From the IMG/VR virus record IMGVR_UViG_3300025270_000009, positions 1 to 64,000 of that record: a stretch of DNA of 64,000 nt; one strand, 5' to 3'. This document shows positions 8,421 to 58,282 of this stretch, piece after piece. The stretch is from a virus. Taxonomy: Duplodnaviria; Caudoviricetes. The notes under the pieces were generated by a model that was not told the origin of the DNA, ran no database searches, and saw only the letters and a program-made list of their open reading frames with translations. A program made the position numbers and the translations under genes. The first letter of the stretch is position 1. Each line of letters opens with the position of its first letter.

Positions 8421-8493
8421 TTTACCGCGCTCGTATTGCTGAATGTGTTCTTATAGTATGACAGTGCTGAGATATATTCAACTCGCCAAAAGA

Positions 8494-17780: not shown

Positions 17781-18869
17781 TTATTTCCTCAGTCTGTCTA
17801 ATACTGAAAACTTCCAGTTAACCTCTTTGGCCTGATTGAATGCAGCAAGAACTTCTGACGGTTTGGCCGAGTCAGGGTCGTGACCGTCTTTTAATTCGCA
17901 AACCATGCACTTCAGGCCTGAGACTTTTTGAAGCGCATACGCTTCTTTTTTGGCGCTCGCTATCGTCTTCTCCTCACCATCCCACATAAAATAAACGGTC
18001 TTGAGACCGTTTCTTTTCAAATCCAAAAGCTGAGACAATTGAGAGTCTGTGTCGAGACTGTTAGATAAAGTCTTGCCAAAAGTCCCCAAAGCTACACCAT
18101 CGATACCGTTTTGCTCGAGAATTCTCTCCATTGCATAAACGGAAAACACGCCTTCGCAGAGAACAGCCGTTTCCGCTCCTACGGCATTGTGAGCGTTATA
18201 CAGATATCTTCCCGTAGCCGGTAGACCAGAAGCCATGAGGTACTTTCTATCAGACTCACCAGTTACATCCCGACCCTGAAAGGTAACCAAGTTACCCTCC
18301 ATGTCTCTTACCGGGATGAGAACCCGACCTGAGAAGTACTGTCGCTTCTTTTCGCCGTTAAGAACAAACTCGTGATACCCATTAGAAGAGTATCTCAAGC
18401 CATGCTTTTTAGTCTGCTCTTTAGTAACACCGCGATCCGTTAAGTATTTGAGGTTTTTGCCGCTCTCAGTCGGTAGCTCATGAGACTCGGGCAATTTTAG
18501 GTCGGTAATGTCGACCTCTTTCACCTGTTTCTTCTCAACTTTTGGGCGCCAACCCATAGAGTCATTAAACTGACGTATGGTTTTTACAGCAGGGCCGTTC
18601 TCCAAACCCATGTGTGCCGCCACAAAAGTGACCTTGTTGAACCAGGGATCATCAACACAAGCGCCGTGAAAGCAGTTGCCCACTCCAGTGTCCCGGTTGA
18701 TAAACACCTTCCAGTCCTTGCCGCCGCACCGTGGGCATTCCTTTAGGTTCAGCTGCTCTCCGGAGCGACCGTGTTTGACGTTATAATCAACACCCTGGTC
18801 GTCTAGCCAAACTTCTAAATCGAACTCCTCCAGGAGCTCGTCAATGCTGCTATTGGTGCGGCGATTCAT
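17781..18869 (-). CDS. DNA primase (zinc-binding domain plus TOPRIM)
   Basis: CPRC...CFH..C, FQGR, CEGVFS, WDGE, HDPD. The ATG at 18869 overlaps the helicase stop as TGATG. Confidence 0.88.
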   Translation of the reverse strand: MNRRTNSSIDELLEEFDLEVWLDDQGVDYNVKHGRSGEQLNLKECPRCGGKDWKVFINRDTGVGNCFHGACVDDPWFNKVTFVAAHMGLENGPAVKTIRQFNDSMGWRPKVEKKQVKEVDITDLKLPESHELPTESGKNLKYLTDRGVTKEQTKKHGLRYSSNGYHEFVLNGEKKRQYFSGRVLIPVRDMEGNLVTFQGRDVTGESDRKYLMASGLPATGRYLYNAHNAVGAETAVLCEGVFSVYAMERILEQNGIDGVALGTFGKTLSNSLDTDSQLSQLLDLKRNGLKTVYFMWDGEEKTIASAKKEAYALQKVSGLKCMVCELKDGHDPDSAKPSEVLAAFNQAKEVNWKFSVLDRLRK

Positions 18870-20185
18870 CAGGTTATCTCCAGTACTTCGGTGATAAATT
18901 GCTGACACTCGAGGTTATTTTTAACCCGAACAGTCATCTTGCCCCGTTGGTTACGTGATGCAGCAAAGAATAGTCGAGATTCTCCGGCTGCTAGCTCATC
19001 CTCTGTCGCGTTGATTGAGATAACCAAGTCGGCAATACGAATCTTGTTGATGTCGTCTGAAACGTCAGTGTCGTCAGCAACAGTTCGTTTCATGCCTTCA
19101 CGGTTAGTCTGAGTAGCAGACAGAACAGCAAGGTCGTGCACTTTTGCAATGTCACGAACACCCGTCCAAATGTTCTTCGAGTTTTCTTGCTTGTCATTCA
19201 TCCAACGGTCGGGAGCCATGATGTCGAGGTAATCTACAACCAGTAAATCAACCTTCTCACCACGCGCCTCATAGTCTTCAATAATCCGCTCTAAATCCAT
19301 AGGGCGGAATGTCGATGCCGGGAATTCGTAAATATCAAACTTACCGGCTCGCTCACTGACTTTCTTGACCTCATCAAGAGTCATCTTCATTTTCTTGGAC
19401 AGTTCGGCCATAGGTACGCCAGAAATGTTCGAATCAATACGATCCGAGATAATTTCTTTACTTACCTCGAGAGAAACGCCAACTACGTTGTACCCCTGAA
19501 GGGCAATGCGCTGAGCGAAATCCCAAATGGCCATTGTCTTACCGCGCTTGGCTCCGGCCATGAAAACGGTAAGCTCTTTAATGCCGAGACCCTTGTGGTG
19601 AAGCAGGTTGTCAAATTGACGGATGCCAGTCGGGATGCCGTTTGGCTTAATTTTCCCTTCAGCAATGTCAACGCGGCGTTTAAAGCGGTCACTAGATTTC
19701 TCAAAAAAGTCGTAAGCTTCGACGCCAATTGACTTGCCGACCTTTGAAGCGCTTTCGAATAGCTCCATGATGGAGTCAAAGTCGCCTTTTTCGTGCAAAT
19801 CGACCGAGCGCTCAATGGCGTCGCGAATTGCTGCGTGCCGAGCGAACTTGGAAACTTGGTCGGCGTAGTACTCGTGATCTTGCAAGTCTGCTTTGTAGAT
19901 TTTTCGAACTCGATCCTTAACGTCCTCGACAAGCTTCTTAGGGATTCGTTGAGAGCTGATTGCACTGTGAAGCTCCTCCTTCAAAACGCTCGTGTCTGAC
20001 AACACCGACTCGTAAACTTCAAAATGGCGGTTTGCCAGCTCTATTAGGCAGCCGACAGCCGGGTCTTCAAAATAATCCGGCTGAACCAATGTCTTAGTTT
20101 TCTTTGCAAACTGAAGGTGCCGCATCTGTAATGCGGCAATCTTCAGCTGAAAGTCTTCAGTGAATTCATAGGTTACTTCGCTCAT
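18869..20185 (-). CDS. DnaB-like replicative helicase
   Basis: Motifs AGAKRGKT, SLEVS, VVDYLD, SATQTNR, IADLVI. Confidence 0.92.
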   Translation of the reverse strand: MSEVTYEFTEDFQLKIAALQMRHLQFAKKTKTLVQPDYFEDPAVGCLIELANRHFEVYESVLSDTSVLKEELHSAISSQRIPKKLVEDVKDRVRKIYKADLQDHEYYADQVSKFARHAAIRDAIERSVDLHEKGDFDSIMELFESASKVGKSIGVEAYDFFEKSSDRFKRRVDIAEGKIKPNGIPTGIRQFDNLLHHKGLGIKELTVFMAGAKRGKTMAIWDFAQRIALQGYNVVGVSLEVSKEIISDRIDSNISGVPMAELSKKMKMTLDEVKKVSERAGKFDIYEFPASTFRPMDLERIIEDYEARGEKVDLLVVDYLDIMAPDRWMNDKQENSKNIWTGVRDIAKVHDLAVLSATQTNREGMKRTVADDTDVSDDINKIRIADLVISINATEDELAAGESRLFFAASRNQRGKMTVRVKNNLECQQFITEVLEIT

Positions 20186-20186
20186 T

Positions 20187-20456
20187 TCAAGCACCTTTCT
20201 GTTCGTCTTTCAGAGTGATACTTTCGAGCTGACCCTTAAAGTGAACGACGCCTTCCACCATCACGGTAAACTGATCACATTCTTGAAGTTCACCATTAAT
20301 AAATGCTCCGCTAGCCAGAACAACACAAACCTCTTTGCCAATAATGCTTTTTAAATAATCGTGGTGACTCCAAGCCTTCGGCTTTTTGGATTTTGGACGG
20401 GCACTGCTGTTTGCTTGCTTGCGACGGTTTAGGGTTAAAGTGTTTTCACTTGGCAT
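20187..20456 (-). CDS. Hfq/Sm-like (LSm-fold) RNA-binding protein
   Basis: HDYLKSIIGKEVCVVLASGAFINGELQECDQFTVMV...HFKGQLESI aligns by eye with Hfq Sm1 (L.NG..LQG.I..FDQF) and Sm2 (YKHAISTV). Confidence 0.65.
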   Translation of the reverse strand: MPSENTLTLNRRKQANSSARPKSKKPKAWSHHDYLKSIIGKEVCVVLASGAFINGELQECDQFTVMVEGVVHFKGQLESITLKDEQKGA

Positions 20457-20528
20457 TGCTGATACCTCTTGTTTTATTGCTGAATGTTTGTGAATGCGAG
20501 AACATACTGCTCTCTTATACTTTGTATG

Positions 20529-21284
20529 TCAAGACTGAGATAGCTCCCCAACTTCAAAAAGAACCCTCTCGCTGAAATAAGACGTCAGCCGCTCAACTAC
20601 CTCTCTTCTCACATGGCCGCGATTGATTGCGTTGGCCAGGCAGTACTGTGGGTGAGACATTTTCAAAGCGTGTTGAATGACGTGTTTCTCATGAGCTTTT
20701 TGAAGCTCACTGACCTCTTCGCCGGGTTTGATGATGTAACGCTCGTCTCGGGCAAATCTAGGCGCGTAACGCTGCATTTCTTGCCAACGCTCATAGACAT
20801 CAGCGACTATATTCACTTCATACAAGTTTGACGCTGACAGCATGAGCTTTCTGGAATCCGACGTCTTCATTCTACCTATAGCCGCTTCGCTGTTTTTTCT
20901 GCGTAAAGCGATTTCAGCGGCATTTGTAATGTAAAAGTCGTATGGGGCGCCCATTTCATCAGCATACTGTCTCGCCTTCCAGAAGTAAGTCGGCGTTGAT
21001 ATCTTTGCCTTCTTACCTCTGTTCGGTCTGTTGTCGAGTGGGTCAGGTCTGGAGTATCCGCGAACATTATCGCCAACGTCACTGTCAATGTGGCGAGCGT
21101 AAAGCCGGCGAAAGGTTTCACGGAATGTTCCGGCGAACAAATATGTTTTCCAGGTCGGATGCTTAGCGCGGTAATCCCACCAACAGATATTCATAAGCTC
21201 CGCTTCTTTCTTCCGGTGCTTCTTTGTGATCCGGTTCACGGCTATTTCTTCGTACTCCGTGTGTGAGAGATTAAGTCCGTACAT
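20529..21284 (-). CDS. Hypothetical phage protein
   Basis: 251-aa ORF upstream of the Hfq-like/helicase/primase genes. Confidence 0.65.
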   Translation of the reverse strand: MYGLNLSHTEYEEIAVNRITKKHRKKEAELMNICWWDYRAKHPTWKTYLFAGTFRETFRRLYARHIDSDVGDNVRGYSRPDPLDNRPNRGKKAKISTPTYFWKARQYADEMGAPYDFYITNAAEIALRRKNSEAAIGRMKTSDSRKLMLSASNLYEVNIVADVYERWQEMQRYAPRFARDERYIIKPGEEVSELQKAHEKHVIQHALKMSHPQYCLANAINRGHVRREVVERLTSYFSERVLFEVGELSQS

Positions 21285-21969: not shown

Positions 21970-22035
21970 AAAAATACTCTCTTACAGGGGAAACTATAAG
22001 AGAGTATATTACAGCACTGAGATATAAATTTACAG

Positions 22036-58090: not shown

Positions 58091-58128
58091 GGGTTTACAC
58101 GGTATCTAAATGCTGAGATACTATTTCC

Positions 58129-58282
58129 AGTTCAACAACATGACGACCTGTTGAGCCATTTGAATTCTCCACAATTCAGACGTATTACCAAGTCCTTTTG
58201 GTTAATTTTAAATCAGAGCCTTGCTTTGTGCACCGCGCACACTAGCTGAATGAAGCCCCTTTCGCCATGAGGGGCTTTTTTT
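58129..58282 (+). ncRNA. Candidate small regulatory RNA
   Basis: Putative promoter TTTACA-17-(TGA)GATACT at 58094-58122, several short hairpins, no long ORF, ends in an intrinsic terminator. Confidence 0.5.
58253..58282 (+). terminator. Rho-independent terminator
   Basis: AAGCCCCT...AGGGGCTT followed by a T run. Confidence 0.8.

Follow-up and report, generated by a model that had tools for sequence, protein, structure and literature searches.

The gene that directly precedes the DnaB-type helicase gene of this phage, an ORF of 89 codons plus stop at 20187..20456 on the minus strand, very probably encodes a divergent Sm/LSm protein of the Hfq branch and belongs to the regular gene content of a nickie/SSU5-like phage lineage. 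The window, i.e. the whole stretch of DNA that was analyzed, comprises bases 1–64000 of a complete 101,852-bp IMG/VR virus record. Many bacteria rely on Hfq as their central small-RNA chaperone. Some members of the phage family already carry the database annotations ‘hfq’ or ‘LSm family protein’; a literature search found no study of phage-encoded Hfq, or of a phage Hfq beside DnaB.

As a tentative explanation, quite possible though short of probable, we propose that the protein is an Hfq-like ring that binds the U-rich RNA 3′ ends of phage transcripts and is made together with DnaB. Ring formation as such should be expected by analogy with Hfq. Earlier suggestions for the function were chaperoning of phage sRNAs, poisoning of host Hfq hexamers and a part in replication. 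The family appears to keep only the U-binding face of Hfq and adds invariant residues and a basic tail; it thus offers a natural dissection of Hfq functions. The virus may carry a chaperone for small RNAs that it makes itself, or an Sm ring may have a new role in replication; as a relative, Pseudomonas phage nickie (gp117), can be cultivated, both ideas are directly testable.

Homology and fold of the 89-aa protein

Considered alone, the window protein did not reach the threshold of any curated model (Pfam, NCBIfam). Its match to Pfam LSM had an E-value of 0.002 (18.2 bits versus a threshold of 23.4 bits), the match to Pfam Hfq had an E-value of 0.009 (16.0 versus 27 bits), and the TIGR02383 score was 14 bits versus a threshold of 61.7 bits. 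A word-indexed protein search with the single window sequence returned only the match to itself; no match was obtained in 50,697 phage records, either by megablast and tblastn with the window gene or by tblastn with two other family members. PADLOC reported nothing, and the leads to Sm/Hfq in the ESM Atlas were all below threshold.

Searched exhaustively with phmmer, 1.8 billion representatives yielded 48 matches, nearly all of them 79–121 aa long. Two long matches (P0009 and P0025) were Ig-repeat proteins; they were dropped as false positives, leaving a 46-member family alignment. Pfam Hfq was touched by 24 of the 46 members, with the best E-value at 2.8e-7. When the profile of the 46 homologues was compared with all PDB sequences, the best five matches were Hfq chains (top match 4nl2, E 2.2e-5, covering both Sm1 and Sm2); matches below E 0.01 were nearly all Hfq or Hfq-like (E 2.2e-5 to 2e-3), with LSm proteins appearing from E 0.01 only. 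The hhalign comparison with Escherichia coli Hfq had a probability of 91.7% (E 7.8e-7) and aligned S30–K83 of the window protein with S6–S65 of Hfq.

The AlphaFold2 single-chain model built from the family alignment (pLDDT 84, core above 90) has an N-terminal helix (residues 31–37) followed by five strands (42–47, 52–60, 64–67, 70–73 and 77–82). Among the Foldseek matches listed for the PDB all were Hfq (TM 0.67–0.82, rmsd 1.1–3.2 Å). VIA-align, a method independent of Foldseek, was run against 48,161 chains and ranked Hfq first (Z 9.7–10.0, rmsd 1.0–1.4 Å), the best match being Caulobacter Hfq (Z 10.0, rmsd 1.2 Å over 57 residues); archaeal Sm proteins came within one Z unit of it, and Hfq, SmAP and LSm chains were all found at Z 8–10. 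Identity to Hfq over the core was 14–22% in the structural alignments. Taken together, the profile, hhalign, Foldseek, VIA-align and AlphaFold2 results argue for Hfq/Sm identity, and the similarity in the profile and hhalign comparisons exceeds chance by far. The initial annotation had proposed such an identity, naming the absence of an Sm fold from a predicted structure as the outcome that would speak against it; the model has the helix and five strands of the Sm fold, and Hfq came at the top in the profile, Foldseek and VIA-align comparisons alike.

If the ORF had arisen by chance, or were a decaying remnant without function, scores below the thresholds of the curated models would be expected. 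We give this reading practically no chance: the ORF has homologues in 111 clusters, four positions of the family alignment are invariant and many more nearly so, and the gene combines a confident fold with a good ribosome-binding site and a conserved position, so that the reading is refuted in practice.

Bacterial Hfq (PF17209, TIGR02383; E. coli 1HK9, S. aureus 1KQ1, Listeria 4NL2, Caulobacter 6GWK) shares with the phage family the fold of a helix and five strands, the Gly/Asp pattern of Sm1, the short Sm2 of the form [Y/F]-K-[H/S]-A, and the counterparts of Q8, D40, Q41, F42 and K56. Unlike Hfq, the phage proteins have neither the distal aromatic residue nor R16/R17/R19, mostly have Ser in place of His57, and remain below the curated thresholds; they carry a basic N-terminal tail of ∼28 residues and a W-x-H motif, whereas Hfq has a variable C-terminal tail; and they are encoded by phages, in genes coupled to dnaB. 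Archaeal SmAP/LSm proteins (1LOJ, 6TFL) match the fold nearly as well as Hfq does (Z 9.0–9.6), and the Hfq-like protein MJ1435 of M. jannaschii (2QTX) was matched by the family profile with an E-value of 2e-4. The SmAP/LSm proteins and MJ1435 are simple U-binding rings without the distal and rim sites of Hfq. The profile, however, ranks LSm below Hfq (E at least 0.01 versus 2e-5), and Sm2 is here of the short Hfq type, unlike that of archaeal LSm.

The Nickievirus Pseudomonas phages carry members of the same family (nickie gp117, YP_009620715, hhalign 95.9%, E 6.4e-9; Nican01, XAI70047). These homologues have the same length and occupy the same slot between the phrog_2500 protein and DnaB, with an overlap with the helicase start; the Nican01 copy is already annotated as ‘hfq, RNA-binding protein Hfq’. 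Identity between the nickie copy and the window protein is only about 16% in the hhalign alignment; the nickie copy is also distinguished by a longer insert separating strands 3 and 4, and is nearer to Pfam Hfq (23.4 bits).

The VIA-align match list also included PDB 9lu5 (2026), in which host Hfq is assembled under C6 symmetry with gp13 and gp14, the neck proteins of phage T4; docking of an Hfq ring on a six-fold phage assembly has a precedent in this structure.

Residues of the RNA-binding faces

We compared residues in the hhalign register against E. coli Hfq and by column counts over the 46 family members. The family consensus, in proteins of 80–120 aa, is K-P-K-x-W-S-H-Q-D ... G ... G-x-L-x-x-A-D-Q-F-T ... 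F-K-S/H-A, and four residues, W29, H31, D61 and K74, are invariant (46/46). In the window copy the signature reads KPKAWSHHD, CDQFT and FKGQ, with the K-P-K-x-W-S-H motif at residues 25–31. The Sm1 pattern consists of G50 (33/46), G55 (38/46) and D61 (46/46), aligned to Hfq G29, G34 and D40. Both DQF and HFK, the latter taken for the YKH of Hfq, had been picked out earlier as parts of the Sm1/Sm2 segments. DQF (61–63) does align with D40-Q41-F42; HFK was one register off, as it is F73-K74-G75 that is aligned with Y55-K56-H57.

In Hfq the proximal face reads U-rich 3′ ends, while the distal face reads A-rich tracts. As to the proximal pocket, the counterpart of Q8 is Gln in 42/46 members, that of D40 is Asp in 46/46, that of Q41 is Gln in 38/46, that of F42 is Phe or Tyr in 46/46 and that of K56 is Lys in 46/46; the position of Y55 is occupied by Phe in 41/46, whereas at the position of His57 there is Ser (25 members), His (17) or Gly (4). 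The window copy has H, Q, F, K and G at the positions of Q8, Q41, F42, K56 and H57, i.e. three of the five are kept. With His for Q8 and Gly for H57 its pocket appears, from the alignment, to be among the least canonical of the family, and this counts against RNA binding by the window protein.

The position of the distal Tyr25 is taken by V/T/L/A/C/Q and is never aromatic-dominated; it is Val in the window copy. The positions of the rim residues R16/R17/R19 are I, G (45/46) and K, followed by a gap, so that the arginine patch is absent. The rim arginines of Hfq are described in PMC3753642 as catalysts of annealing. What the family has added is an invariant Trp-x-His immediately in front of helix 1, together with a basic N-terminal tail, noted already in the initial annotation, which spans residues 1–28 of the window copy and has a median length of 27.5 aa and a net charge of +6 across the 46 homologues. 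One could speculate that this tail might substitute for the rim patch.

The residue pattern predicts a protein that would bind U-rich 3′ ends rather than act as a complete matchmaker; a classical matchmaker role is weakened by the loss of the distal Tyr and the rim Arg patch. We suggest that one face of the ring would carry the conserved uridine pocket (the counterparts of Q8, D40, Q41, F42 and K56, with Ser, His or Gly at His57) and that the invariant Trp-x-His and the basic N-terminal tails would surround it. Because most residues of the uridine pocket are kept in the family and both the distal Tyr and the rim arginines are absent, the likely activity would be the capture of U-rich single-stranded RNA 3′ ends, rather than full sRNA–mRNA matchmaking in the manner of Hfq.

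The same residues bear on whether the target might be the host, i.e. whether the protein mixes into host Hfq rings and poisons them, or soaks up U-tailed host sRNAs. Hfq is usual in Proteobacteria, and the hosts or source organisms in the records of relatives (Pseudomonas syringae, Magnetospirillum, Shinella, Methylobacterium) all belong to this group; the Sm core and most pocket residues would be available for such interference. However, core identity as low as that given above makes mixed rings doubtful, and the family-specific W-x-H and basic tail suggest a function of its own. We consider host interference very unlikely.

Junction with the helicase gene and distribution in related phages

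The Hfq-like gene is followed on the minus strand by the gene of a DnaB-type replicative helicase (18869..20185; PF03796, E 4.8e-19; phrog_19, E 4.6e-76) and by that of a DnaG-type primase (17781..18908; PF08275, E 1.8e-10; phrog_47, E 3.4e-46), third in the unit and overlapping the helicase stop. On its 5′ side, beyond the region 20457..20532 (minus strand, defined by reading by eye and by leader sharing), are genes for a 251-aa all-helical phrog_2500 protein (20529..21284, minus strand; phrog_2500 E 6.9e-30, synteny, AlphaFold2 pLDDT 85), for a Dam methylase and for PhoH. A terminator-like 14-bp inverted repeat with a T-run is located between the PhoH and Dam methylase genes (window 21974–22007, minus strand).

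The stop codon of the Hfq-like gene (20189–20187) is separated by one base from the helicase ATG at 20185–20183 (GGT GCT TGA A ATG AGC). An alternative in-frame helicase start, GTG at 20194, would give an 8-nt overlap with the Hfq-like gene, as annotated in phage nickie. The Hfq-like gene has an AAGAGG ribosome-binding site (20470–20465) 8 nt 5′ of its ATG; the helicase ribosome-binding site, AAAGGTG, lies within the final codons of the Hfq-like gene. The earlier description of an 89-aa ORF that ends 1 nt before the helicase ATG, in tight coupling to the helicase-primase genes, is therefore accurate, and the coupling extends to related phages.

A sub-alignment search recovered 14 IMG/VR loci of the family, mostly on contigs of 105–118 kb. 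The order PhoH–phrog_2500–Sm–DnaB–primase was found in all 14 loci as well as in phages nickie and Nican01. The nearest DnaB start lies −8 to +6 nt from the Sm stop in the 14 loci, and the gap upstream of the Sm gene measures 23–88 nt; at the DnaB–primase and PhoH–phrog_2500 junctions, which contain gene insertions, the spacing extends from overlap to about 1.9 kb. This difference in spread indicates that the Sm–DnaB junction is under a constraint that its neighbors lack.

In the relatives examined, the phrog_2500 gene (product of ∼240 aa) always precedes the Hfq-like gene or, in phages that lack the latter, DnaB. Across 14 sequences of the phrog_2500 protein 17 residues are invariant, and its confident model is all-helical (pLDDT 85, pTM 0.79). 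A comparison with the PDB revealed no sequence relative, and structure matches were poor (Foldseek E > 0.3, VIA Z ≤ 5.5); the protein might at most be speculated to be an initiator or loader, to which the structure search adds no clue.

On a larger scale, a profile search of 5.8 billion clusters yielded 111 family clusters at 90% identity. Most of them are named ‘hypothetical’, a few ‘LSm family protein’ (Magnetospirillum), ‘snRNP-like’ or ‘Hfq’, and only 2 of the 111 have a precomputed Hfq or Hfq_1 match. Several of the clusters are on contigs of 105–120 kb, some from isolate assemblies (Magnetospirillum, Shinella, Methylobacterium). Searching the phage records by tblastn with the nickie copy gave five Pseudomonas-phage relatives, and canonical Hfq matched 7 of the 50,697 phage records, two of the seven being titled as Salmonella genome contigs. 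Thus, the initial remark that Hfq-like proteins are uncommon on phages is right for canonical Hfq, but does not apply to the divergent family, which with its 111 clusters is a regular gene of its lineage. None of 185,579 species genomes matched KPK[AS]W[STN]H[QH]D, and no relative turned up when viral contigs were scanned with P0005 as the sole query.

The window also contains a ParB-like gene and an ABC-type ATPase. Along with the relatives of 105–120 kb, some of them in isolate assemblies, these genes would fit a phage-plasmid lifestyle without being proof of it.

The module also occurs without the Hfq-like gene, namely in phage SSU5, Escherichia phage Cyrano and Rhizobium phages RHEph10 and B1VFA; the gaps there are 43–118 nt. 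In a DnaB tree, in which one Sm-negative clade was placed, the carrier L017 groups as sister with B1VFA, a non-carrier, and RHEph10, likewise without the gene, branches just outside this pair (clade support 100/99); the Hfq-like protein of L017 had no tblastn match anywhere in the phage collection. As the non-carriers keep the module and L017 and B1VFA are sisters, a loss or gain of the Hfq-like gene must have occurred within the lineage, and DnaB works without it. A 69-aa ORF of Stenotrophomonas phage ANB28 (L004:3290-3499) fills the same slot before DnaB and has, by eye, an Sm1-like pattern; it could not be assigned to the family (hhalign 3.7%, no Pfam match).

These observations bear on the question whether the protein is a replication accessory, a ring made 1:1 with the hexameric DnaB and acting on the replisome. 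Possible roles are loading or capping of the helicase, holding RNA (an origin transcript or a primer) or T/U-rich strands at the origin, and coupling of helicase and primase. All 16 carriers examined (14 IMG/VR loci, nickie and Nican01) have the gene immediately before DnaB, and the junction stays within −8 to +6 nt although insertions are common at the adjoining junctions; the gene heads the helicase-primase unit with a promoter-like region of its own, and no DnaC-like or lambda P-like loader was recognized among the neighbors tested. The junction with DnaB is the only lineage-wide constant, and it fits a role in replication at least as well as it fits RNA binding. On the other hand, SSU5, Cyrano, RHEph10 and B1VFA keep the PhoH–p2500–DnaB–primase order without the gene, and its absence from phages as close as the sister of L017 weakens an obligatory role in replication. 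Moreover, all carriers are in one syntenic lineage, so the adjacency may reflect a single historical event. A longer form or a fusion of Sm with DnaB was looked for and not found, which is weak evidence. We know of no Sm-family protein that acts as a helicase loader. Overall, a replication accessory seems to us somewhat unlikely, albeit with a substantial chance of being correct.

One could also imagine an Hfq-family ring recruited to replication, where it would supply the helicase-primase with an RNA 3′ end, be it that of an origin transcript, of a primer or of a small RNA. If true, such recruitment would tie the RNA-level control of early genes of the phage to the start of replication; to our knowledge, no Sm protein has a role of this kind, and we regard the idea as improbable.

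In the reading that we tentatively prefer, capture of U-rich 3′ ends, the Hfq-like gene would be first in the helicase-primase transcription unit and translationally coupled to DnaB and, because it heads the unit and is so coupled, ring and helicase would be made together at the onset of replication.

Control region and candidate small RNAs

Reading by eye suggested a promoter-like site in front of the Hfq-like gene, TTGACA (20532–20527, overlapping the stop of the upstream gene), a spacer of 17 nt and CAGTAT (20509–20504). A consensus promoter scan did not call this site, and the 19-nt promoter word is unique within the window, with no second copy. Further downstream in the 5′ region is the leader word ACATTCAGCAA (20487–20477), preceded by a near-copy, CATTCACAA. 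Genome-wide there are 18 occurrences of ACATTCAGCAA, while the core of this word, CATTCAGCA, is present just 5′ of about 20 gene starts; the leader motif ascribed to the gene earlier is indeed there, and is shared with about 20 other gene starts. Leader-word sites in the window, all on the minus strand, are for instance at 8445, 13323, 14866, 17719, 20486, 62501 and 63384. In the form (A)CATTCAGCAA the word is common to ∼20 genes genome-wide, usually 15–30 nt before the start codon. The TAAGAGAG motif was not enriched.

The gene had also been credited with its own operator at 20525. We saw there one half-site, TTGACATAC (20532–20524), of the palindrome GTATnTCA..TTGAnATAC; the full palindrome is incomplete at the Hfq-like gene, but present at 11 other sites, just 5′ of the leader word. 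A compound word, TATCTCAG-N-TTGACATAC (TATCT(C/A)A(G/A)-N2-3-TTGACATAC), found at 20532, is shared with sites at ∼50413 and ∼44852 (minus strand), both just 5′ of an ATG; it may represent a second promoter class.

With such a leader the protein could be an autogenous or operon-level translational regulator, which binds its own leader or the dnaB start and sets helicase-primase output, in analogy to the self-repression of Hfq or to the tandem-Sm repressor FljA. The tight coupling, the position of the dnaB ribosome-binding site inside the end of the Hfq-like gene, and the duplication of the leader motif (CATTCACAA then ACATTCAGCAA) would all agree with regulation of this type. Nevertheless, the 76-nt leader has no conspicuous stretch rich in U or A, and a leader common to ∼20 operons is not operon-specific. 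Such a regulator is, in our estimate, quite unlikely.

The leader has a counterpart in antisense orientation. An sRNA-like unit at genome positions 86306–86415 (minus strand), outside the window, consists of the reverse complement of the leader abutting a 13-bp hairpin with a U6 tail, so that a 25-nt anti-leader seed is directly 5′ of the terminator hairpin. The seed has a 21-nt match to one leader and a 13-nt match (ACATTCAGCAATA) to the leader of the Hfq-like gene itself. Matches of at least 9 nt were observed in 18 of 117 gene 5′ regions, versus 2.9% of background windows; targets were ranked by seed-only matching, as duplex energies of the whole sRNA were too noisy. A second sRNA-like unit (window 58094–58282, plus strand) has a terminator preceded by GCTGAATG, an anti-leader match of 8–9 nt.

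A seed beside a U-tailed terminator is the module read by the Hfq proximal face; since the 86306–86415 candidate has this architecture of seed, hairpin and U6, a self-contained circuit of protein and sRNA in this phage is plausible. Hfq-dependent sRNAs and the c4 antisense RNA of P1/P7 are comparable, the candidate likewise having its seed 5′ of a hairpin and U6 tail; unlike in those systems, the anti-leader RNA is here a prediction from sequence, and none was found in four other carriers. A crude scan of these carriers (G001, G003, G004 and nickie) for terminator-tailed anti-leader RNAs gave only cis-antisense matches or palindromic operators, a weak negative given that RNAs of this kind may escape notice in high-GC genomes, where U-tail terminators are few. 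Still, with an anti-leader RNA found in this genome but in none of the four others scanned, a lineage-wide function of the protein cannot depend on that sRNA network.

For the proposed capture of U-rich 3′ ends, the candidate ligands in this phage would be the terminator-tailed anti-leader RNA or RNAs and the ∼20 leader-bearing mRNAs, among them the mRNA of the Hfq-like gene itself. In regulatory terms, the protein might then belong to a loop that shuts off early and replication genes.

A repeated word at the start of transcription units is seen in a relative as well. In G001 (IMG/VR, 117,697 bp, high-GC) many units, e.g. those at L034–L039, start with GCTATAAC and the palindrome CAGTCAGC-nn-TGACTGA, an operator or 5′ hairpin that resembles the leader word of the window phage.
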